Assembly (NCBI GenBank): GCA_036378095.1
Contig: DASUXC010000084.1
Location: 19,805-83,804 of the forward strand
Length of the DNA stretch: 64,000 bases
Reading direction: 5' to 3'
From: Gemmatimonadaceae bacterium
Lineage (GTDB): Bacteria; Gemmatimonadota; Gemmatimonadetes; Gemmatimonadales; Gemmatimonadaceae
Position numbers and translations under genes: made by a program
The notes under the pieces: generated by a model
What the model was told of the DNA's origin: nothing
What the model saw: only the letters and a program-made list of their open reading frames with translations
Databases searched by the model: none
Part shown: positions 8,879 through 48,997 of the stretch, piece by piece
Position numbering within the stretch: position 1 is the first letter of the stretch
How the letters are laid out: each line of letters begins with the position of its first letter

Positions 8879-9031
8879 CCGCGCCAGGTGTTGTGGGAGC
8901 AGCGCGCGCGGCTCGGCGACGCGCGCTATTCGGGGCTCCCGGGTGACATTCGCGGCACGCGGCCATCCGCCGGGCATGGTCGCTGCGTTCCGATCGATCT
9001 TCGATTGAATGACATGAAGGAGCAGGATACG

Positions 9032-9922
9032 ATGGCCAGCAGACCGACGACGACAGCCACGCCCGCGGCACAGGCGGGCTCGATCACCATTGGCGGGGAC
9101 CTCGTGGTCGAGCGCATGGGCTACGGCGCCATGCGGCTCACGGGGAAGGGGATCATCGGCGAGCCCGCCGACCGCGCCGAGGCGAAGCGCGTGCTTCGCC
9201 GCGCCGTGGAGCTCGGAGTGAACTTCATCGACACGGCGGACTCGTACGGGCCGCACGTCTCGGAGGAGCTGATCGCCGAGGCGCTTCACCCGTATCCGGA
9301 GGGGCTCGTGATCGCCACCAAGGGCGGCCTCGAGCGGCCGGGGCCGGACCAGTGGCTGCCGAACGGCCGGCCGGAGCACCTGCGCGCCGCGCTCGATGGG
9401 AGCCTCCGCCGGTTGAAGCTCGACCGCATCGATCTCTGGCAGCTCCACCGCATCGATCCCGAGGTTCCGGCCGACGAGCAGTTCGACGTGCTCGCGGAGT
9501 TCGTTCGGGAGGGGAAGGTGCGGCACGTCGGCCTCTCCGAGGTGAGCGTGGAGCAGATCCGGCGCGCGCGCGAGGTGGTGCCGATCGCCTCGGTGCAGAA
9601 CCGCTACAACGTGTTCGACCGGCAGTGGGACGACGTCGTGGACGAGTGCGAGCGCGAGGGGATGGCGTTCATCCCGTGGTATCCGCTCGCCGCGGGGGTG
9701 CTCGGACAGTCGGAGCGCGAGGCGAGCGAGCGGCTGGCCAGAGTGGCGCGGCGCCACGGCGCGACGCCCCTCCAGGTGGCGCTCGCCTGGCTCCTTGCGC
9801 GGTCGCCGGCGATGCTCGTCATTCCCGGCACCTCCAAGGTGAAGCACCTGGAGGAAAACGTGGCGGCGGCGGGGGTGGAGCTGAGCGCGGACGACTTGCG
9901 GGAGCTCGGGAATCGGGAATAG
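9032..9922 (+). CDS. Aldo/keto reductase
   Basis: ATG 9032 is preceded by AAGGAG with a 9-nt spacer (alternative ATG at 9014). [47 protein letters not shown]. The last 7 codons and the stop lie in repeat element E2. Confidence 0.9.
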
Positions 9923-10082
9923 GGAATCTCGGGAATCGGGAAGCGGGAATCGGGAAGCGGGAATCGGCAAGCGAAGAGCACCGATGTGGATGGCAACGGG
10001 GCCGGCGACCGCCGGCCCCGTTGCGTTCCATGCTCGATCGCTTCCCGATTCCCGAGATTCCCTATTCCCGATTCCCGAGCTC
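9902..10082. repeat. Composite element E2 (GGGAATC family): perfect 44-bp inverted repeat around a 12-bp GC hairpin
   Basis: 9902..9945 (gagctcgggaatcgggaatagggaatctcgggaatcgggaagcg) is the exact reverse complement of 10039..10082. The left array continues with further GGGAA(T/G)C units to about 9972. Central hairpin AACGGGGCCGGC-gacc-GCCGGCCCCGTT at 9995..10022. Confidence 0.92.
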
Positions 10083-12359
10083 CTTCGCCATCTCGCTCAC
10101 GTGCGCCGCTTCGGCGTCGAGCACGGCGGCGATGCGGGCGATCTCGGTGTTCGCGGCCGTCCATTCCCCCTGCTCGATCGCCTCGCGCGCGCCGGGCATG
10201 GTCTTCACGCCGTAGCCCGTGTAGTAGCCCGGCGCGTAGAGCAGGTGGCGATACCACGGGCGGTTGGGGAGGCCACGATCCGACGTGAGCAGCCGCTCGC
10301 TGGCGAGGAGCTGCTCGTTGATCGACGCCAGCGACGCGCGGCGCTCACTGGAGCCCGCCGCCCGCGACGTGGTGTCGCTCTCCCCCGACCACGCGGCGTA
10401 CGCGCGCTCGAACCGGTCGGCGGCGTGCGCGAGCGAGTCGGCGGCGTTGTGCAGCGCGGCGAACTCGAGCCGCGGCGCCGGCGTCTCCCGCTCCGGCGCG
10501 CGCGTCGGGTCGCGGGGATCGCTCACCAGCGCGTACATGCCATCGTCGATGTCGCGGTTGCGCTGCTCGATCTCGCTCGCGCGCTTGTCGCGGAGCTGCT
10601 CCAGCTCGGTGACGTAGCGCTGCACGGTGGCCGCGAGGTTCGCGAAGCGGAACGGGAGCAGGTCGGCGTCGGCGAGACGCATGACGGCGGTGCCGACGGT
10701 CTGCGCGAGCGCGCGGCCGTAGACGAACGAGGTGTCGGCGAAGTGCGTGTACCAGTAGAAGTCGTCGTACACCGAGTGGTACACCCCGCCCCGGTCCTCG
10801 CCGCCGAAGCCGAGGTTGAGCGACGCGATGCCGAGGTGCTGCACGAAGGGCGTGTAGTCGGAGCCGGATCCGAGCGCGCCGATGGGAAGGTCGCCGCCAT
10901 CCTTCGGCGGCTCGCGGTGGTCATCGGAGGACCGGTGGACGCGGGCGCGCGCCTGGTCGCGCTTCCACACGGTGGCGCCGCTCTCCGGGTCGTCGATGTC
11001 GCGCGCCACGTCGTTGATGAAGCGCTCGAGCGTGTGCGAGCCCGACATCCCGAGGTATCCGCGGCCGTTCCCGTCCGTGTTCAGGTACGCGACCGCGTGC
11101 CGCGCCAGCTCCTCGGCGTGCGCCTCGGCCCACTCGGTCGAGCCGAGCAGCCCCGGCTCCTCGCCGTCCCACGCCGCGTAGACGATCGTGCGCTTCGGCC
11201 GCCAGCCGCTCTTGTACAGGGCGCCGAGCGCGCGCGCCTCCTCCAGCTCGGCCACGAGGCCCGAGATCGGGTCGGCGGCGCCGTTCACCCAGCCGTCGTG
11301 ATGGTTGCCGCGGACCACCCACTCGTCGGCCTCGCTCGTGCCCGGAAGCCTGGCGATCACGTCGTAGAGCGTCTTCAGGCTCCAGTCGGACTTCACGACG
11401 AGGTGCACGCGCGCGGGACCGCTCCCGCCATAGCGATACGTGATCGGCAGCCCGCCGCGCCAGCTCTCGGCCACCACGGGGCCGCCGAGCGCGGCGAGCA
11501 GCGGCTGCGCATCGCCGTACGAGATCGGGAGCACGGGGATCTTCGTGATCGTCTTCGCCTCGGCCACCGTCAGCCGCTTGGCGTCCTTCGTCGCGCCCAC
11601 GCCCGGCGTGAGCGGATCGCCGGGGTAGACCGGCATGTCCGCGACGCTGCCGCGCTGCACGCCATCGCGCGGGCGCATCGGCCCCGCGGGGAAGACGCTC
11701 CCCTCCGCCCAGCCATCATCGGCGGGGTCGGAGTAGATGAGGCACCCGACCGCGCCGTGCTCGGCGGCGACCTTGGGCTTGATGCCGCGCCACGAGCCGC
11801 CGTAGCGGGCGATGACGATCGCTCCCTTCACCGACACGCCGTGGCGCGCGAGCTCCTCGTAGTCGGCGGGGACGCCGTAGTTCACGTAGACGATCGGCGC
11901 GGTCACGTCGCCGTCGGCGGAGTAGGCGTTGTACGTGGGGAGCTGCTCGTCGTGCTGGCCGCTCGTGGGATCGGCGGCCACGGCCGGCTCGCGCAGCGCC
12001 GCGCGGAACGTCGTCGGGGCGACGAGCTCCACGACCCGCTGCTTCGGGGTGGGGAAGAGCACGTCGAAGCGCTCGATCCGCGCCTGCCAGCCGTACGACT
12101 CGAACTCCTTGCGCAGCCAGGCGGCGTTCGTGCTGTCGTACGGCGAGCCGACGTGGTGCGGACGCGCGGAGAGGGTTCGCATGGCCTCGCGCATGCGCGC
12201 GGGCTCGGGGATGGCGCGGAACTTCGTTTCCCAGCCGCGCTCGACGCGCGAGGACTCCGGCGTGAAGCCGCGCAGGGTCGAAGGATCGGTGCGGGTGGGC
12301 AGGATGGAGAGCCCGGCCAGCGCGAGCGCGAGCGAGAGGGAGTGAGCGGGAGTGTTCAT
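10062..12359 (-). CDS. M28 family metallopeptidase, glutamate carboxypeptidase II / transferrin-receptor-like
   Basis: Inner ATG (MNTPAHSLSLALALAGLSIL, signal peptide) of ORF 10062..12461. PA-domain block IVIARYGGSWRGIKPKVAAEHGAVGCLIYSDP, zinc-site blocks GNHHDGWVNGAADP and WDGEEPGLLGSTEWAE, and a C-terminal dimerisation-like region. Confidence 0.9.
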   Translation of the reverse strand: MNTPAHSLSLALALAGLSILPTRTDPSTLRGFTPESSRVERGWETKFRAIPEPARMREAMRTLSARPHHVGSPYDSTNAAWLRKEFESYGWQARIERFDVLFPTPKQRVVELVAPTTFRAALREPAVAADPTSGQHDEQLPTYNAYSADGDVTAPIVYVNYGVPADYEELARHGVSVKGAIVIARYGGSWRGIKPKVAAEHGAVGCLIYSDPADDGWAEGSVFPAGPMRPRDGVQRGSVADMPVYPGDPLTPGVGATKDAKRLTVAEAKTITKIPVLPISYGDAQPLLAALGGPVVAESWRGGLPITYRYGGSGPARVHLVVKSDWSLKTLYDVIARLPGTSEADEWVVRGNHHDGWVNGAADPISGLVAELEEARALGALYKSGWRPKRTIVYAAWDGEEPGLLGSTEWAEAHAEELARHAVAYLNTDGNGRGYLGMSGSHTLERFINDVARDIDDPESGATVWKRDQARARVHRSSDDHREPPKDGGDLPIGALGSGSDYTPFVQHLGIASLNLGFGGEDRGGVYHSVYDDFYWYTHFADTSFVYGRALAQTVGTAVMRLADADLLPFRFANLAATVQRYVTELEQLRDKRASEIEQRNRDIDDGMYALVSDPRDPTRAPERETPAPRLEFAALHNAADSLAHAADRFERAYAAWSGESDTTSRAAGSSERRASLASINEQLLASERLLTSDRGLPNRPWYRHLLYAPGYYTGYGVKTMPGAREAIEQGEWTAANTEIARIAAVLDAEAAHVSEMAKELGNRE

Positions 12360-18938: not shown

Positions 18939-20246
18939 ATGAAACGCCGTCTCGCCCTCGCGCTCACCGCGCTCGTACTGCCGGCCACCGCCTCGCGCCT
19001 GGCCGCGCAAGACGGATCCGTGCTGCGCGCGCCGATCCAGCACATCCGTCCGGCCGATCAGAGCGGGATCAACGTCTTCGAGTCGCCGAAGACCGACTCC
19101 ACCCCGTTCAACGGCCTGGCGCTCTCGGTCGGCGCCGCGTTCACGCAGCAGTTCCAGGGACTCAAGCACGCCAACGCGGCGTCGCCGAACATGGTGGATG
19201 GCAAGGACGCGAACAAGTTGATCGACATCGGGAAGGGATTCAACAACGCGACCGCGAACCTGATGCTGAACGCCCAGCTCGCGAAGGGGATCCGCGTCCA
19301 GCTCACCAGCTACCTCTCGGCGCGCCACCATCAGGAGACGTGGGTGAAGGATGGCTACCTGCTCGTCGATGCGTCGCCGCTCGACGTCAAGGTGCTGAAC
19401 GACATCATGAAGGTCGTGACCCTCAAGGTGGGGCACTTCGAGATCAACTACGGCGACCAGCACTTCCGCCGCTCGGACAACGGGAACGCGATGTACAACC
19501 CGTTCGTCGGCAACCTGATCATGGATGCCTTCACGACGGAGGTGGGGGGCGAGGTGTACGTTCGCACCGGTCCCTTCCTGGCCATGGGCGGGATCACCGG
19601 CGGCGAGGTGCGCGGCAGCGTGCAGAACCCGAGCAAGCGCGGGCCGTCGTACCTGGCGAAGCTGGGCTTCGACAAGCAGATGGACCCGGCGCTGCGCGTC
19701 CGCCTCACGGGGTCGCTGTACAAGAACGGGAAGTCGAACAGCAACACGCTGTACAGCGGCGACCGCGCCGGCTCGCGCTACTACGACGTGATGGAGAACA
19801 TCACGTCCACCGAGACCGCGCAGGCCTGGTCGGGTGAGATCCAGCCCGGCTTCAAGAACAAGGTGACGGCGATGGTGCTCAACCCCTTCATCAAGTACCA
19901 CGGGCTCGAGCTGTTCGGCAACATCGAGCGCGCCAAGGGTCGCGCCTCCACGGAGGCGGCGGATCGCACCTGGCACCAGTACGCGGGCGACGCGGTGTAC
20001 CGCTTCGGGCCGTCGGAGAAGTTCTACGTGGGCGGCCGCTACAACACGGCCAACGGCTGGCTCGCGGGGATCACCGACGAGGTGCGCGTGAACCGCGTGC
20101 AGGCGGGCGGCGGCTGGTTCGTGACGCGCAACGTGCTCGCCAAGGCGGAGTACGTGGACCAGCGCTACAAGGACTTCCCGGTCACCGACATCCGGCACGA
20201 CGGTCGCTTCCACGGCTTCATGGTGGAGGGCGTGGTCGGCTTCTGA
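18939..20246 (+). CDS. Outer-membrane beta-barrel porin-like protein
   Basis: Inner ATG (MKRRLALALTALVLPATASRLAAQ, signal peptide) of ORF 18174..20246. Alternating beta-strand pattern, ending ...FHGFMVEGVVGF with a terminal Phe. Confidence 0.75.
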   Translation: MKRRLALALTALVLPATASRLAAQDGSVLRAPIQHIRPADQSGINVFESPKTDSTPFNGLALSVGAAFTQQFQGLKHANAASPNMVDGKDANKLIDIGKGFNNATANLMLNAQLAKGIRVQLTSYLSARHHQETWVKDGYLLVDASPLDVKVLNDIMKVVTLKVGHFEINYGDQHFRRSDNGNAMYNPFVGNLIMDAFTTEVGGEVYVRTGPFLAMGGITGGEVRGSVQNPSKRGPSYLAKLGFDKQMDPALRVRLTGSLYKNGKSNSNTLYSGDRAGSRYYDVMENITSTETAQAWSGEIQPGFKNKVTAMVLNPFIKYHGLELFGNIERAKGRASTEAADRTWHQYAGDAVYRFGPSEKFYVGGRYNTANGWLAGITDEVRVNRVQAGGGWFVTRNVLAKAEYVDQRYKDFPVTDIRHDGRFHGFMVEGVVGF

Positions 20247-20274
20247 TCCGGTGGTGGTCGACCACGAGCGGGAC

Positions 20275-20308
20275 GCCACGGGCGGCTCTCCGGAGAGCCG
20301 CCCGTGGC
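20275..20308 (+). terminator. Strong hairpin after the porin gene
   Basis: GCCACGGGCGGCTCT-ccgg-AGAGCCGCCCGTGGC, a 15-bp perfect stem 29 nt after the stop. No clear U-tract. Confidence 0.55.
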
Positions 20309-20415
20309 GCATCCATACCCGACGGTTGGGCACGACACGTGCACTTCTCCGCGGACGACATGGAAGCCGCCGGCCATCGGTCCGCGGCACGATCTCTCAT
20401 TGGGAGACACCACGC

Positions 20416-21300
20416 ATGAGAAGCGCACCTCTCGTCTCCGGGCGCATGGTCGCGCTCGTCTTCGCCGGCGCCGTTGCCGCGGCCTGTGGCAGCGACTCCT
20501 CGACACAACCCAAGACCGTCGCCAGCGTGACCGTGAGTCCCGCGAAGGACACCGTCCAGACGGGCGAGACGGCGCAGTTCACTGCCGAGCTCAAGGACGC
20601 CAACGGCAACGTGCTCACGGGGCAGTCGGTGACGTGGACCTCGAGCGACACGGATGCGGCCCCCATCTCCGCGTCCGGCGCGGTGGCGGCGATCCTCCCC
20701 GGGACGTCGACGATCACCGCCACCGCCGGGGGCGTCTCGAACACCGCCGATCTCACCATCCTCGCCGGTGCCGCGCACCAGCTCTCCGAGGGCGAGCGGA
20801 TCGGCGACTCCACCTTCGCCCCCGGCGACGGCCCCAACGGCGGGCAGGGCGACCCGGTGGGCAGCGTGCCGTGCGCCGCCGATGCGGGGCAGCCGGTGGA
20901 ACACCGGCACTCGCACCTCACGCTCATCGCCAACGGGCAGCAGATCGCGATCCCGCTCGCCATCGGCGTGATGAACCCCATCTACAACGACACCAACGAG
21001 GCGTTCGCCGGCACGTGCTTCTACTGGCTGCACACGCACGACCAGACGGGGATCATCCACGTGGAGCCGTTCGAGGGGGGACACACGTTCACGCTCGGTG
21101 ACTTCTTCGACATCTGGGGGCAGCCGCTGACGGCGAGCGGTGTAGCGGGGTACAGCGGGAGCGTGGCGGCGTACGTGGACGGGAAGCGCTTCACCGGCGA
21201 TCCGCGCTCGATCGTGCTCGCCGATCACCAGCAGATCACGCTCGAGGTGGGAGCTCCCCTCGTGGCGCCGCCGATCTACACCTGGCCCAATGGCTATTAA
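20416..21300 (+). CDS. Lipoprotein with Big_2 (bacterial Ig-like) domain and a His-rich C-terminal domain of unknown function
   Basis: Inner ATG of ORF 20251..21300. Lipobox LVFAGAVAAAC-GS. Big_2 block VASVTVSPAKDTVQTGETAQFTAELKDANGNVLTGQSVTWTSSD. C-terminal EHRHSHLTLIANGQQIAIP...CFYWLHTHDQTGIIHVE...FTLGDFFDIWGQPL. The 3' end overlaps the kaiC start by 11 nt. Confidence 0.75.
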   Translation: MRSAPLVSGRMVALVFAGAVAAACGSDSSTQPKTVASVTVSPAKDTVQTGETAQFTAELKDANGNVLTGQSVTWTSSDTDAAPISASGAVAAILPGTSTITATAGGVSNTADLTILAGAAHQLSEGERIGDSTFAPGDGPNGGQGDPVGSVPCAADAGQPVEHRHSHLTLIANGQQIAIPLAIGVMNPIYNDTNEAFAGTCFYWLHTHDQTGIIHVEPFEGGHTFTLGDFFDIWGQPLTASGVAGYSGSVAAYVDGKRFTGDPRSIVLADHQQITLEVGAPLVAPPIYTWPNGY

Positions 21301-22738
21301 GGCACCAACCGGCATCCGCGGTCTCGACGAGATCACCGGCGGTGGGCTGCCGGCCGGGCGCCCCACGCTGGTGTGCGGCGGTCCGGGCTGCGGGAAGACG
21401 CTCCTGGCGATGGAGTTTCTCGTGCGCGGCGCCACGGATGCCGGCGAGCCCGGAGTGTTCGTCGCGTTCGAGGAGACGGTGGCCGACCTCGCGGCGGACG
21501 TCGCGTCGCTCGGCTTCGACCTCGACCAGCTCATTGCCCAGGGGAAGCTGCGCGTCGACCACGTGCGCGTGCTGCGCTCCGAGATCGACGAGGCCGGAGA
21601 CTACGACCTGGAGGGGCTGTTCGTCCGCCTCGGCCACGCGATCGACAGCATCGGCGCGAAGCGCGTGGTGCTCGACACGATCGAGACGCTCTTCTCCGCC
21701 TTCTCCAACGAGGCCATCCTGCGCGCCGAGCTGCGCCGGCTGTTCGGATGGCTCAAGGAGCGCGGCGTGACCGCGGTGATCACCGCCGAGCGCGGAGAGG
21801 GCACGCTCACCCGGCAAGGGCTGGAGGAGTACGTCTCCGACTGCGTGATCCTGCTCGACCACCGCGTGAACGGGCAGGTGAGCACCCGGCGCCTTCGCGT
21901 GGTGAAGTACCGCGGCTCCTCGCACGGCACGAACGAGTTCCCGTTCATCATCGAGGACGGCGGGCTGACGGTGCTCCCGATCACCTCGGTCGGCCTCTCG
22001 TACGGTGTGAGCGAGGAGCGCATCTCGACGGGGGTGGCCGGGCTGGATGACATGCTCGGCGGCCTCGGCTTCTACCGGGGGAGCAGCATCCTCGTCTCCG
22101 GCAGCGCCGGCACGGGAAAGTCGCTGCTGGCGGCGCACTTCGTGGACGCCGCCTGCCGGCGCGGCGAGGGCGCGCTGTACTGCGCGTTCGAGGAATCGCC
22201 GGCGCAGATCATGCGCAACGCCCGCGCGACGGGGGTGAGGCTGGCGGAGCACGTGGAGCGCGGCCTGCTTCGATTCCACGCGGTGCGCCCCACCATGTAC
22301 GGGCTCGAGGCGCATCTGGCCCGGATCGTGAAGGACATCGACATGTTCCGGCCGCGCGTCGTGGTGCTCGATCCCCTCACGGCGTTCCTCGGCGCCGCCA
22401 TGCAGCCCGATGTGCTCGCGATGGCGACCCGTCTCATCGACTCGCTCAAGCTCGTCGGGATCACGGCGATGATGACGAGTCTCAACGGCCGTGACGAGAC
22501 GGTCCTGGGGGAGAGCGACGTCGGCGTCTCATCGCTGGTGGACTCGTGGATCTGCCTCCGCGATGTCGAGCGGCACGGTGAGCGCCACCGCGGCCTCTAC
22601 GTTCTCAAGTCCAGGGGCATGGCGCACTCCAACCGGATTCGCGAGTTTCTCATCTCGAGCCAGGGGATCCGACTGGGCGAACCCAACCCGGGTGACGAGC
22701 GGGAAGGGTGGCAAGTGGAGTTCATCGAACGGCAATGA
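21290..22738 (+). CDS. kaiC: Circadian clock protein KaiC homolog (double RecA-like ATPase)
   Basis: 482-aa [24 protein letters not shown]. Walker A GGPGCGKT (CI) and GSAGTGKS (CII). Catalytic EE pairs VAFEE and CAFEE. C-terminal [44 protein letters not shown]. Confidence 0.92.
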
Positions 22739-22793
22739 CACCGCCGCCGCTCACGCCGTGCGCGGCGCGGCCACCCTTTTTCGAGTGCGCTTC

Positions 22794-23123
22794 ATGAGCA
22801 CATCCAAGGCGCCCGGCGCGGCGCCCACCCTGTCGGAACCCGCGGTCGAGCAGTGGGATCTGCGGCTCTACGTGGCCGGGCAGTCTCCGCGCTCGCTCGC
22901 CGCGTTCGCGAACCTCAAGCGGCTGTGCGACGAGCACATTCCCGGTCGCTATCACATCGAGGTGATCGATCTCGTCGCCCACCCGCAGCTCGCGGTCAGT
23001 GACGAGATCGTCGCCCTTCCGACGCTGGTCCGGCGGCTGCCGCCGCCGATCAGGAAGCTCATTGGCGACCTGTCGAACGGCGAGCGCACGCTCGTCGGCC
23101 TCAACATTCGCCCTCGCGCGTGA
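22794..23123 (+). CDS. kaiB: KaiB homolog (copy 1)
   Basis: Inner ATG of ORF 22491..23123. [74 protein letters not shown] is the canonical KaiB pattern. Confidence 0.9.
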
Positions 23124-23151
23124 CCAGCGCGCCACCACGGCGGACGATCTC

Positions 23152-23493
23152 ATGCCCGAGCAGCCTGTCAGCGTCACCGAGGAGTTCGAGCGCGCACTCC
23201 GGGGCGTGCAGCCGAACGCGCGGTACGTGCTCCGGCTGTACGTCGCCGGCTCGAGCGCGCGGTCGCTCCGCGCCGTGGAGAACGTGCAGCGGCTGTGCGA
23301 GGCGTACCTGCCGGGGCGCTACGACCTCGAGGTCATCGACATCTACCAGCTCCCCTGGCTCGCCGAGGCGGGGGAGGTGGTGGCCGCGCCGACGCTGGTG
23401 AAGGAGCTCCCGCTTCCCCTCCGCCGCGTGGTCGGCGACCTCGCCGACGAGGGGCGCGTGCTGATCGCGCTCGGCCTCAGGGTGGCGGCATGA
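23152..23493 (+). CDS. kaiB: KaiB homolog (copy 2)
   Basis: Inner ATG of ORF 22999..23493. YVLRLYVAGSSARSLRAVENVQRLCEAYLPGRYDLEVIDIYQLPWLAEAGEVVAAPTLVKELPLPLRRVVGDLA. The stop overlaps the next ATG (ATGA). Confidence 0.9.
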   Translation: MPEQPVSVTEEFERALRGVQPNARYVLRLYVAGSSARSLRAVENVQRLCEAYLPGRYDLEVIDIYQLPWLAEAGEVVAAPTLVKELPLPLRRVVGDLADEGRVLIALGLRVAA

Positions 23494-25190
23494 GCACGTC
23501 GAGCGACGAGCCCGTCGCGGGATCGACGATCGCGATGGCGGATGCGGCGGCGCGCCCGAACGGCCGGGAGGACAGCCGGCCGGCCGATCCCGGGCTGGAT
23601 GCGCTGCGGATGCGCCTCCAGGAGGCGGAAGAAACGCTGCGGGCGATCCGCCTGGGGGAGGTGGACGCGGTCGTGGTGCAGGGACCGGACGGCCCGCGCA
23701 CCTACACGCTCGTCACCGCCGACCAGGTGTATCGGCAACTCGTCGAGCAGATGCGCGAGGGGGCGCTCACCTTGAGCACCGCCGGCGTCATCCTGTACTG
23801 CAACGCGCGCTTCTCGGCGCTCCTCGGCCGGCCGCACGCGAGCATCGCCGGGCGGCGGCTCCGCGAGCTCGCCGATGCGGGCGATGTGGATCGCCTGCAG
23901 ACGCTGCTCGATGCCGCCGCGACCGGGAGCGCGAGCGGCGAGGTGCGGCTCCGGCGCGGCGACGGCACCCCCATCCCCATGCTCCTCTCCCTCAGCGTGC
24001 TCCGCGCGGAGGCGTTCAACGGGATCTGCGCCGTGGCCACCGATCTCACCGACCGGGATCACCGCGAGCAGCAGGCGGCGGACGAGCGGCTCACGCGGGC
24101 GATCCTCGAGCACGCCGCCGAGGCGATCGTGCTGTGCGATGCCGACGGGCGGATCGCGCGCGCCAACCGGATCGCGGTCGAGCTGAGCGGGGAGGATGTG
24201 GTGGGTCGCCGCTTCGAGGAGGCGTTTCCGGTGGGGATCACGTTCGCCGAGCTCACGGCGCCGACGCACGCCTCGCTCGGCGAGCGCCGCGATGGAAGCT
24301 TCGTGCGGGGCGATGGCCGCCGGGTCCACCTGCTCGTGGGAGCGCGTCCGATCGGTGGCGAGATCGACATCGACGGCGACCGGTGGGTGGTGACGCTGGC
24401 CGACGTCACCGCGCGGCGCGAGGCCGAGGCGGCGCGCGACCGGCTGCTCCAGGCCGAGCGCGCGGCCCGCGCCGACGCGGAGAACGCGAGCCGGGCGAAG
24501 TCGGACTTTCTCGCCGTCATGAGTCACGAGCTCCGGACGCCGCTCAACGCCATCGCCGGCTACGCGGAGCTCATGCAGCTCGGCGTGCCGGAGCCGGTGC
24601 CCGAGGCGCACCGCCCGTATCTCGTCCGGATCCAGGCGGCGCAGCGCCACCTCCTCGCGCTCATCAACAATGTTCTCAACCTCGCGAAGCTCGAGCGGGG
24701 TCACGTGGAATACCAGGTGGAGCCCGTGGCCGTGAGCGAGCTGTGGACCACGGTGGAGGCGCTGGTGTCGCCGCAGATCCACGGCAAGGGGCTCGAGTAC
24801 CGGAGCACGCCGTGCGATCCGTCGCTCGTGGTGATGGTGGATCGCGAGAAGGCGGTGCAGATCCTCCTCAACCTGATCGGCAACGCGGTGAAGTTCACGC
24901 CGGCCGGCGGCCGGGTGACGCTCGATGCCGATCATCTGGGCGACCGGGTGAGCATCCGGGTGCGCGACTCGGGGATCGGGATCGCCCCCGAGAAGCTGGC
25001 ATCGGTGTTCGAGCCGTTCGTGCAGATCGACCGAACGGTCGCGGGTACGAGAGAGGGGGTGGGGCTCGGTCTCTCCATCAGCCGGGAGCTCGCGCGCGGG
25101 ATGGGCGGCGATCTGACCGCGCAGAGCGTGCCGGGTGAGGGGTCGGAGTTCTGCCTGGTGCTGCCGGCGGGGGGAACGGCTCGGGAATAG
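23490..25190 (+). CDS. Cytoplasmic PAS-PAS sensor histidine kinase (candidate Kai output/input kinase)
   Basis: Inner ATG of ORF 23295..25190. Coiled-coil plus IRLGEVDAVVV, two PAS-like blocks, H-box MSHELRTPLN, N-box LLNLIGNAVKF, G-boxes DSGIGI and GVGLGLS. No TM segment. The stop TAG lies in the first GGGAATA unit of E4. Confidence 0.9.
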   Translation: MSTSSDEPVAGSTIAMADAAARPNGREDSRPADPGLDALRMRLQEAEETLRAIRLGEVDAVVVQGPDGPRTYTLVTADQVYRQLVEQMREGALTLSTAGVILYCNARFSALLGRPHASIAGRRLRELADAGDVDRLQTLLDAAATGSASGEVRLRRGDGTPIPMLLSLSVLRAEAFNGICAVATDLTDRDHREQQAADERLTRAILEHAAEAIVLCDADGRIARANRIAVELSGEDVVGRRFEEAFPVGITFAELTAPTHASLGERRDGSFVRGDGRRVHLLVGARPIGGEIDIDGDRWVVTLADVTARREAEAARDRLLQAERAARADAENASRAKSDFLAVMSHELRTPLNAIAGYAELMQLGVPEPVPEAHRPYLVRIQAAQRHLLALINNVLNLAKLERGHVEYQVEPVAVSELWTTVEALVSPQIHGKGLEYRSTPCDPSLVVMVDREKAVQILLNLIGNAVKFTPAGGRVTLDADHLGDRVSIRVRDSGIGIAPEKLASVFEPFVQIDRTVAGTREGVGLGLSISRELARGMGGDLTAQSVPGEGSEFCLVLPAGGTARE

Positions 25191-25283
25191 GGAATCGGGA
25201 ATCGGGAATCGGGAATCGAGAATCGGGAATCGAATGCGCGAGGAGCGTGCTGGCGATTCCCGTTTCCCGATTCCCGAGCCGTT
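25176..25283. repeat. Composite element E4 (GGGAATC family) between convergent genes
   Basis: Left array of 7 heptads at 25183..25231 (gggaata gggaatc x4 gagaatc gggaatc). Right arm cgattcccgtttcccgattcccgagccgt (25254..25282). The outer 13 nt (acggctcgggaat / attcccgagccgt) are a perfect inverted repeat. Confidence 0.88.
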
Positions 25284-27031
25284 CAGAATCCCACCGCCAC
25301 CCCGTCCCCCCGCGAGTCCGCGCCTCCCTCGAGCACGCCGGTGTCCGCGTGCACGCGGATCATCTGGGCGTGTCCCATGTCGGAGGACCAGTCTTCCACC
25401 ACCCGCACGCGATGGCCGCGGCGGCGAAGCTCGCGCGCGACCGCGTGCCCCACGCGTCCCTCCAGCCACAGCAGCTCGCGCGGCGAAGCGAGCGTGCGCC
25501 CCATCACCCATCGCGGCGCGTCGATCGCGCGCTGCACGTCGTGCCGCATGTCCACCAGGCGCGTGATGAGCGCCGAGTGCGTTTGCGGCTGTCCGTTTCC
25601 TCCCATCGTCCCGAACGCCGCCCACGGCGCACCTCGCTCGAGCGCGAGCGCCGGGGAGAGCGTGTGGAACGGTCGCTTCCCCGGCGCGAGCACCCCGGAG
25701 GCGCGCGCGTCGAGCGAGAAGAGCGCGCCGCGATTCTGCAGCAGCACGCCCGTGTCCGCCGCCACCTCCAGGCTTCCGAACGCCAGGTAGATGCTCTCGA
25801 TCGCCGACACCACCAGTCCGTCGGCGTCCACGACGGTGAAGGCGCACGTGTCGCCGCGCGTGCCGCAACCGGCGCCCGCGTCCACGCCTCGCGGCGCGGC
25901 GCGCGGGATCCCCGGCGCCAGATCCGCCGCGGCGATCGCCGCGGCGGGCCGAATGAGCCGGCGCCGCTCCGCCGCATAGTGCTCGTCGAGCAGCCGCGCG
26001 AGGGGAGCCTGCACGAACCGCGGGTCGGCGCACCACGCATCGCGGTCGGCGTAGGCGAGGCGCGCGGCCTCGGCCTGGTAATGGTAGTAGTCGGCCGAGG
26101 CATCCCCCCACGCGGCGACGTCGAACCCCTCGAGCAGCGCGAGGATCTCGAGCGCGGCGAACCCCTGCGAGTTCGGCGGCATCTCCTGGACCGTGATGCC
26201 GCGGTACGAGGTCGCGATCGGCTCGGTCCACTCCGCGCGGTACGCGGCGAGGTCGGCGGCCCGGAGGGGGGAGCCGAGCGCGGCGACGTCGCGGCACGTG
26301 CGCTCCGCGAGCTCCCCATCGTAGAAGGCGCGCGGCCCCTCGCGCGCGATGCGATCGAGCGTCGCGGCGAGGGCGGGCCGAGCGAGCGGCTCCCCCAGGG
26401 CCGGTACCCGTCCGCCCGGCAGGAACTCGCGCGCCGCGCTCGGGTGTTGGCGGATCGGCTCGGCGCTCGAGGCGAGCGCGCGGGCGAGCGAGCGTCCCAC
26501 GGGCACGCCCTCCCGGGCCCAGCGAACGGCGTCGGCGAGGAGCTCGCCCCAGGCGAGGCGGCCGAACCGCTCGTGCGCCGCGCGCCAGCCATCCACGGCG
26601 CCGGGCACGGTGAGGGTGGCGAGCGCGCCGCGCTCGGGGATGCGCCGCCCGCGCCCGCGCGCCGCGTAGTAGTCAGGCGTGGCGAGGCGCGCGGCCGGGC
26701 CGCTCGCGTTGAGGGCGAGCGTACGAGCGCTCCGCGGGTCGTGAACGAGCCAGAAGCCGTCGCCCCCGATCCCGGTCATGTGCGGGGACGTCACGCCGAG
26801 CGCGGCGGCGATGGCGATCGCCGCATCCACGGCGCTGCCGCCCACCCGCAGGACTCGGAGCCCGGCCGCGCTCGCCAGCGCGTGCGGCGAGGCCACCATC
26901 GCCGTGGGGGCGAACACCGGGGCGCGAGGGGTGACGAGCGCGGCGGTGCCGCGGCGAGCGCGCGGGATGGTCACGAGGCACAAGGTACGGCTCGCCAGGG
27001 GAGATGCCAATGCATCTGTCCATCTGGTCAT
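25283..27031 (-). CDS. ggt: Gamma-glutamyltransferase family protein
   Basis: 582-aa ORF. MVASPHALASAAGLRVLRVGGSAVDAAIA, TGIGGDGF, nucleophile-Thr block GDTCAFTVVDADG, TMGGNGQPQ. The start may be an internal Met. Confidence 0.85.
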   Translation of the reverse strand: MTRWTDALASPLASRTLCLVTIPRARRGTAALVTPRAPVFAPTAMVASPHALASAAGLRVLRVGGSAVDAAIAIAAALGVTSPHMTGIGGDGFWLVHDPRSARTLALNASGPAARLATPDYYAARGRGRRIPERGALATLTVPGAVDGWRAAHERFGRLAWGELLADAVRWAREGVPVGRSLARALASSAEPIRQHPSAAREFLPGGRVPALGEPLARPALAATLDRIAREGPRAFYDGELAERTCRDVAALGSPLRAADLAAYRAEWTEPIATSYRGITVQEMPPNSQGFAALEILALLEGFDVAAWGDASADYYHYQAEAARLAYADRDAWCADPRFVQAPLARLLDEHYAAERRRLIRPAAAIAAADLAPGIPRAAPRGVDAGAGCGTRGDTCAFTVVDADGLVVSAIESIYLAFGSLEVAADTGVLLQNRGALFSLDARASGVLAPGKRPFHTLSPALALERGAPWAAFGTMGGNGQPQTHSALITRLVDMRHDVQRAIDAPRWVMGRTLASPRELLWLEGRVGHAVARELRRRGHRVRVVEDWSSDMGHAQMIRVHADTGVLEGGADSRGDGVAVGF

Positions 27032-48876: not shown

Positions 48877-48880
48877 GGAA

Positions 48881-48997
48881 GTGGGGAATCGGGAAGCGGG
48901 AATCGGGAATCGGAAGTATGGGCGGGAACGCGGCGCCGGTCGACCACGCCCCACCGGATCCCCTCGGCTCCCGATTCCCGATTCCCGATGCTTTCCC
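48881..48997. repeat. Composite element E7 (GGGAATC family) in a divergent intergenic region
   Basis: Left heptads gggaatc gggaagc gggaatc gggaatc at 48884..48911, starting 8 nt from the ATG of the minus-strand gene. Right arm ggctcccgattcccgattcccgatgctttccc at 48966..48997. Confidence 0.82.

Follow-up and report, generated by a model that had tools for sequence, protein, structure and literature searches.

The question raised by this locus is whether a lipoprotein gene that heads a tightly packed series of kai genes belongs to the timing system encoded behind it. The locus lies in a stretch of 64,000 nucleotides (nt) from the Gemmatimonadaceae contig DASUXC010000084.1 (hereafter the window), where five genes follow each other on the forward strand: a lipoprotein gene, kaiC, two copies of kaiB and a PAS histidine kinase gene. 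A preliminary description had read all five as one unit, in which the exported lipoprotein would be an envelope-linked input or output of the timer. Re-reading of the sequence confirms that description in every position: the genes, the distances between them, the hairpin upstream and the repeat element downstream lie exactly where it had them. The interpretation offered here is a different one. The last four genes (kaiC, kaiB-alpha, kaiB-beta and the gene for a Kai-linked PAS kinase) very probably form a conventional KaiA-less cassette of the KaiC2 type. The lipoprotein gene, judged by comparison of related loci, is a resident neighbour outside this conserved cassette.

The lipoprotein gene runs from its ATG at 20416 to a TAA at 21300 (20416..21300; 294 amino acids, aa) and overlaps kaiC (21290..22738; 482 aa) by 11 nt. 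After a gap of 55 nt follows the first kaiB, or kaiB-alpha (22794..23123; 109 aa), and after another 28 nt the second, or kaiB-beta (23152..23493; 113 aa), which shares an ATGA overlap with the kinase gene (23490..25190; 566 aa). The domain scores of the lipoprotein (Pfam Big_2, E 2e-12), KaiC (Pfam KaiC, E 1e-107) and the two KaiBs (Pfam KaiB, E 5e-24 and 8e-22) are far above chance. No further kai-like gene was found in the cassette or in the rest of the 64-kb window, where no query directed at KaiA was made.

KaiC matches Pfam PF06745 in two stretches, corresponding to two tandem RecA-like halves, and both halves carry a Walker A motif and the catalytic EE pair (GGPGCGKT at residue 30 and FEE at 60; GSAGTGKS at 271 and FEE at 300). 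The protein scores 674 bits against NCBIfam NF006799 (cutoff 408), and with 327 bits it stays under the cutoff of 546 for the cyanobacterial equivalog TIGR02655. Searching the PDB gave approximately 603 bits for the KaiC of Rhodobacter (Cereibacter) sphaeroides (8DBA, 8DB3 and 8FWI; residues 4-469) against approximately 312 bits for that of Synechococcus elongatus. The phosphosite is a Ser-Ser pair (S414/S415) that aligns with S413/S414 of KaiC_RS; such a pair, instead of the Ser-Thr of KaiC1 and KaiC3, is the trait that defines KaiC2 (PMC5520375, PMC10076222). Classification of KaiC by profile had been put forward as a check on the locus, and its outcome assigns the predicted protein to the KaiC2 or R. 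sphaeroides type.

The KaiBs point in the same direction. Against Pfam PF07689 they score 84.2 and 77.2 bits (cutoff 27), but both remain under the cutoffs of the cyanobacterial equivalogs NF006798 (110) and TIGR02654 (145), and we therefore regard them as KaiB family proteins rather than as KaiB1 equivalogs. For both, the best match in the PDB is the KaiB of R. sphaeroides (106 bits for the first copy, with 8FWJ_M, and 91 bits for the second), whereas the KaiB of Legionella is a far weaker match at 46-61 bits.

The last gene of the cassette encodes, according to Pfam, a cytoplasmic sensor kinase with two PAS domains followed by HisKA and HATPase_c, and without a receiver domain. Its N-terminal module (aa 36-315, window 23595..24434) consists of the motif LRxRLxEAEETLxAIRxGEVDAxVV and the two PAS domains. 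Kinases encoded behind kaiB elsewhere have a homologous module: the identity amounts to 30% over 335 aa (E 1e-26) for the Kai-linked HWE kinase of C. sphaeroides KD131, to 43% for a kinase of Pararhizobium and to 51% for a homologue in Gemmatimonadaceae. The transmitter halves, by comparison, have been swapped among lineages: HisKA in the window, HWE in C. sphaeroides, a hybrid form with a receiver domain in Pararhizobium and a form with an extra GAF domain in one of the Gemmatimonadaceae genomes introduced below (L164). Since the N-terminal module is shared while the transmitter halves differ, it is likely the module that couples the kinase to the Kai proteins.

A scan of metagenomes with KaiC yielded 80 loci (L083 to L162) with 59-69% KaiC identity and a G+C content of 37-71%, of which 62 had enough downstream sequence to be informative. 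In all 62 kaiC comes first and is immediately followed by kaiB. A tandem kaiB is present in 34 of these loci and a single kaiB in the other 28, and a homologous kinase is next in 58 of the 59 loci with room for one. The same four genes (kaiC of 592-602 aa, kaiB, kaiB and PAS kinase, with overlaps of 4 nt) occur in two Gemmatimonadaceae genomes (L163 and L164), and the RefSeq annotation shows this layout also on plasmid p3 of the cultured Pararhizobium qamdonense T808. Neither the leading position of kaiC nor the tandem kaiB is thus the oddity that the preliminary description took it for. A kaiC-B-PAS/HK operon has already been described (PMC4794148), and the combination of kaiC-kaiB with a histidine kinase in non-cyanobacteria was described in 2011 (PMC3164672). 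What that description did recognize, a KaiBC plus kinase module of the hourglass type without KaiA, is borne out by the R. sphaeroides-like KaiC, its Ser-Ser site and the homologous kinase module. Given the homology of KaiC, KaiB and the N-terminal part of the kinase, we regard the locus as the same module as the kaiC-B-PAS/HK operon of Rhodopseudomonas palustris and R. sphaeroides. A recent horizontal transfer of the cassette was also considered, but it is not claimed: the G+C content of the cassette is not distinctive in the window (72%), and the nearest KaiC relatives with a taxon label are Gemmatimonadaceae.

Could the lipoprotein nonetheless be a fifth member of a functional operon? The arrangement in the window speaks for it to some extent: kaiC overlaps the lipoprotein gene and lacks its own Shine-Dalgarno sequence, so that the two genes are probably co-transcribed and translationally coupled. 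One relative, L082, whose lipoprotein is 89% identical, also has kaiC downstream. The surveys of related loci argue in the opposite direction. An alignment of 16 lipoprotein orthologues was compared against one genome per species, and among the best 80 loci, taken with up to 8 kb of flanking sequence and including seven full-length Gemmatimonadaceae orthologues, not one has kaiC or kaiB within 8 kb. Conversely, none of the 80 loci related by KaiC has the lipoprotein beside kaiC. The gene upstream of kaiC is variable there, and clustering of 123 upstream open reading frames (ORFs) from 56 loci showed no conserved partner 5' of kaiC: only receiver or PAS signalling proteins recur (nine loci), and no lipoprotein does. 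In L163 and L164 a divergent PALP/GHMP gene stands upstream of kaiC in the place of the lipoprotein gene. Of the linkage that a survey of gene neighbourhoods had been expected to reveal, only the adjacency in L082 is left.

A second relative, L002, makes the same point from the side of the lipoprotein. Its lipoprotein is 69% identical and its gene order is collinear with that of the window on both sides (a YceI-like gene, then those for a 434-aa exported protein and for the lipoprotein, then ggt and a hybrid PAS kinase gene), but the lipoprotein gene is followed by ggt and the 3.9-kb kai block is missing. Because L002 is collinear without the cassette, the latter can be seen as an insertion or deletion between resident genes, with an envelope gene cluster (YceI-like, 434-aa protein and lipoprotein genes) on one side and ggt on the other. 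At the spot of the cassette L002 has an ORF for a hydrophobic protein of 124 aa (8900-9271, minus strand) that has no Pfam match and does not occur in the window, which suggests that the content of the slot from lipoprotein gene to ggt varies. The lipoprotein gene has a 5' control region that all three loci (window, L082 and L002) conserve, regardless of whether kai genes follow. In this region all three keep a possible operator, the palindrome-like GACACGTGCA motif (around 20338-20350), as well as a GGGAG Shine-Dalgarno sequence (20403-20408).

The overlap itself can be traced by comparison with L082. There, lipoprotein gene and kaiC are separated by a spacer of 173 nt that includes a GGAGG Shine-Dalgarno sequence, and KaiC starts 12 residues earlier. 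Aligning the DNA of both loci shows that exactly 211 nt are missing from the window, namely the spacer with its Shine-Dalgarno sequence and the first 12 codons of kaiC. The junction of this deletion (21287..21300, forward strand) falls in the last lipoprotein codons AAT GGC TAT TAA, which contain the ATG of kaiC at 21290, its first possible in-frame start. The AAT of the window corresponds to AAC in L082, so that the new start depends on a synonymous change within the lipoprotein gene. Given the observation that L082 keeps both the spacer and the additional KaiC codons, the 11-nt overlap is the scar of a recent, lineage-specific deletion. The expression of kaiC would then probably depend on the lipoprotein gene, though by recent accident rather than by design. 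An operon of five functionally connected genes, with the lipoprotein feeding into the KaiBC timer or carrying its output, is consequently highly improbable in our opinion. The envelope link proposed earlier rested on an overlap that has turned out to be a deletion accident, and no conserved connection of the lipoprotein with kai stands behind it.

Given this deletion, it might be argued that the cassette is simply decaying toward pseudogenes, having lost the promoter, the Shine-Dalgarno sequence and the N-terminal codons of kaiC as well as the coiled coil of its product. KaiC is indeed shorter at both ends, with 482 aa against 570-626 aa in its nearest relatives (69-74% identity, Gemmatimonadaceae included). 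The latter carry a YLGxxGVLTGSSR motif and a heptad-like tail of approximately 100 residues, whereas the protein of the window ends 13 residues past the conserved core and lacks this C-terminal coiled coil. In R. sphaeroides the coil forms the KaiC dodecamer and speeds dephosphorylation; without it, autophosphorylation and nucleotide exchange remain intact in vitro while autodephosphorylation is nearly abolished (PMC10076222). However, none of the four reading frames of the cassette is disrupted, and the catalytic motifs have been retained. The ratio of nonsynonymous to synonymous substitution rates (dN/dS) of kaiC against L082 is 0.10 (182 codons), and only four of 133 highly conserved KaiC columns deviate, all conservatively, while the functional protein of R. 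sphaeroides deviates at more of them. The synonymous change that yields an in-frame ATG exactly at the junction does not suggest decay either. No remnant of the tail, but only noise, was found in any frame or in the rest of the window, so the tail apparently was lost cleanly and not by a frameshift. Moreover, an extension of approximately 50-100 aa is typical of the KaiC2 subgroup without being universal: short-tailed KaiC2 proteins form entire natural clades elsewhere. The same sequence is found, identically, in an independent assembly. Decay of the cassette is therefore very unlikely, and kaiC appears to be under purifying selection instead.

The presence of two KaiBs deserves a closer look. 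In a neighbour-joining tree of 108 KaiBs all second copies, including that of the window, stand apart from all first and single copies, which group with the R. sphaeroides KaiB and the first KaiB of the window. The bootstrap value of the beta clade is 168/200 for the exact group and 199/200 if two strays are allowed. The order alpha then beta also holds in L163, L164 and Pararhizobium, as reciprocal best hits confirm. On the basis of the split in the tree, the tandem pair can be attributed to an old duplication with a fixed order, so that the phylogeny of the KaiBs, another check envisaged for this locus, resolves them into two ancient paralogue groups.

The number of KaiBs is also associated with the length of the KaiC tail. 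Two KaiBs are found in 33 of the 42 loci with a long-tailed KaiC, whereas among the 20 short-tailed loci there are two with a pair and 18 with a single copy (Fisher's exact p = 3e-7, a value that ignores kinship among the metagenomic loci). The combination seen in the window, a short tail with two KaiBs, occurs among the metagenomic loci only in L144 and L158. Judging from these comparisons, the window genome has a rare natural KaiC that is predicted to be coil-less while both KaiBs are retained. A search of the full-text literature gave no description of KaiC2 cassettes with a tandem kaiB, nor of any KaiC from Gemmatimonadetes, which is not proof of absence. It is tempting to see the form with alpha and beta as the majority, apparently unstudied version of the KaiC2 timers, with a role of KaiB-beta distinct from that of KaiB-alpha; we put this forward tentatively and consider it rather unlikely. 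KaiB-beta might for instance act as an adaptor that couples the state of KaiC to the N-terminal module of the kinase, comparable to the recruitment of CikA by fold-switched KaiB. If its role is distinct, the window would be a natural experiment, with a coil-less KaiC that can be reset only via the KaiBs and whose expression is newly slaved to the gene of an exported lipoprotein resembling a metal-binding protein.

How would the cassette work? By homology, KaiC hexamers would autophosphorylate on S414/S415 without KaiA. KaiB would bind the phosphorylated KaiC and promote its dephosphorylation as ATP/ADP falls, resulting in an hourglass driven by the environment rather than a free-running clock (from PMC10076222). 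The kinase would read the state of KaiC and KaiB via its N-terminal PAS module and signal to an unlinked response regulator. Since engineered coil-less KaiC of R. sphaeroides phosphorylates normally but hardly dephosphorylates, resetting in the window should lean more on the KaiBs. In this lineage the expression of kaiC would probably rely on read-through from the lipoprotein gene and on translational coupling to it.

Several points weigh against this picture of a conventional hourglass cassette. The mechanistic steps are inferred from homology at approximately 60% identity, and the kinetics may differ substantially from those of R. sphaeroides, as the KaiC of the window is without the coil that speeds dephosphorylation. 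The cassette contains no response regulator, and hence none is linked to it that could carry the output. Relative to L002, the cassette may have been either inserted in the window or lost in L002. Finally, KaiC2 homologues of Legionella and Pseudomonas act in stress resistance, with no demonstrated timing role.

The last point leads to a further explanation, namely that the genes encode a signalling module for stress responses and not a day-night timer, as in the KaiC2 systems of Legionella pneumophila and environmental Pseudomonas. As far as the studies cited in PMC5520375 go, KaiC2 homologues outside phototrophs are tied to stress resistance. The host is a soil Gemmatimonadaceae metagenome-assembled genome (MAG) that is not known to be phototrophic, and the wide G+C range of the related loci (37-71%) suggests that many of them belong to non-phototrophs. 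On the other hand, the closest characterised homologues are the timers of R. sphaeroides and R. palustris, and the match to the Legionella KaiB is much weaker than that to the R. sphaeroides KaiB (46-61 against 91-106 bits). A stress module is accordingly possible, though doubtful. Both roles are not mutually exclusive, because an hourglass driven by ATP/ADP itself senses the metabolic state. A KaiA-less KaiC2-type cassette agrees with either role.

Turning to the lipoprotein itself, inspection of motifs reveals a signal peptide and a lipobox (MRSAPLVSGRMVALVFAGAVAAAC, followed by GS). Cys24 is invariant in the 16 orthologues, in a context of [LIV][AVT]AC. The Big_2 domain covers aa 35-114. 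Orthologues are found in Gemmatimonadaceae only, and dN/dS against L082 amounts to 0.18. The remaining His-rich C-terminal domain of approximately 170 aa (residues 120-294, window 20773..21297) has a set of invariant residues (C153, H163/H165/H167, C201, H206/H208/D209 and H215/E217) and belongs to no Pfam or NCBIfam family. Its AlphaFold model (predicted local distance difference test 92, predicted template modelling score 0.90) gave no significant fold match in the PDB (best E 0.33), and a fold search with the model of the full lipoprotein returned Big_2 matches only. Related sequences are present in at least 587 loci of species-representative genomes and come in three forms. In Gemmatimonadaceae the domain is fused to Big_2, in Acidobacteriota, Actinomycetota and others it stands alone with approximately 200 aa, and Paraburkholderia, Caballeronia and Trinickia have it as a tandem duplication. 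The pattern of conserved residues looks like that of an uncharacterised exported metal-binding domain.

Both elements that had been proposed to bound the locus are confirmed. Upstream, a G+C-rich hairpin on the forward strand (20271..20314; -39.9 kcal/mol, z-score -5.8, with none of 200 shuffled sequences as stable) lies 3' of the gene for the 434-aa envelope protein; it is likely a terminator and would form the left edge of the transcription unit of the lipoprotein gene. Downstream, repeat element E4 (25174..25284, no strand assigned; -59.3 kcal/mol, z-score -5.5) has arms of 31 nt (25174-25204 and 25254-25284) that are 94% complementary, in which an array of GGGAATC heptamers faces its inverted copy and yields a long hairpin. 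The arms extend into the last kinase codons on one side and into the 3' end of ggt, which is convergent, on the other. E4 is likely a bidirectional terminator or an element resembling repetitive extragenic palindromes, and marks the right boundary. Matches to the pair of heptamers number 23 in the window against 0.32 expected. Similar elements are located at 9901-10083 and 48877-48989; across the three copies the heptamer reads GGGAATC, GGGAAGC or GGGAATA, and the inverted arrays yield long hairpins. No element of the E4 type occurs at the corresponding spot in the syntenic L002.

Within the cassette, the 55-nt spacer between kaiC and kaiB-alpha contains a small G+C hairpin followed by CACCCTTTTT (22755-22781), a single terminator-like structure and no more than chance would give. 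As it folds no more stably than shuffled sequence (z-score -0.7), it may mean nothing. In relatives kaiC and kaiB overlap or are 5 nt apart. A sigma-70 promoter scan of 20000-25400 gave zero sites, but for this phylum such a scan and the terminator call are both uninformative. The 434-aa protein encoded upstream of the locus (18942..20246) starts with a signal peptide (MKRRLALALTALVLPATASRLAAQ...) and matches no Pfam family. With its counterpart in L002 (6578-7822) it shares 80% identity and the synteny with the YceI-like and lipoprotein genes. It may belong to the outer membrane, as the product of an envelope gene cluster.

Summarizing, the locus adds an example from Gemmatimonadaceae to a widespread, already described type of KaiBC-kinase cassette and removes a false lead toward an envelope lipoprotein. 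The His-rich C-terminal domain of the latter, widespread as it is, is a separate lead that is unrelated to kai. Two ancient KaiBs in a fixed order are found in over half of the environmental loci closest to the window, in contrast to the single kaiB in the cassettes of R. sphaeroides and R. palustris.

The differences are largest with respect to the KaiABC system of S. elongatus. The double-domain architecture of KaiC is shared and the KaiB family is homologous, but the window has Ser-Ser instead of Ser-Thr, a score under the TIGR02655 cutoff, no kaiA in the cassette, the order kaiC-kaiB instead of kaiB-kaiC and a kinase without the KaiB-like domain of SasA. The operon of R. palustris, a proto-circadian timer (PMC4794148), resembles the window in its published layout: kaiC is followed by kaiB and by the gene of a PAS histidine kinase, and a single promoter is assumed to drive all three. 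One kaiB is described there against two in the window. Closest in gene content are the Gemmatimonadaceae MAGs GCA_035253905.1 and GCA_035249955.1 and plasmid p3 of P. qamdonense T808, which share all four genes, the alpha-then-beta order of the KaiBs and overlaps of 4 nt or short gaps. The KaiC of the two MAGs is approximately 70% identical to that of the window. Unlike the latter, these cassettes encode a KaiC of 566-602 aa with the coil and have no lipoprotein gene; kaiC opens the unit, and the gene ahead of it is divergent or unrelated. One of their kinases has an extra GAF domain and another is a hybrid with a receiver domain. Among the characterised systems, the kaiC-kaiB-HWE kinase cassette of R. 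sphaeroides KD131 (8DBA, 8DB3, 8FWI/8FWJ; PMC10076222) is the best counterpart. It provides the best PDB matches for KaiC and KaiB, has the Ser-Ser site and the homologous PAS module in its kinase, and likewise places kaiC first and the kinase last, tightly spaced and with no kaiA in the cassette. The window differs by an additional kaiB of the beta type, by a HisKA instead of an HWE transmitter and by a kaiC that lacks its own 5' region. Its coil-less KaiC is the natural counterpart of the engineered delta-coil protein of R. sphaeroides, and together with both KaiBs it could allow clock biochemists to test resetting without the coil.

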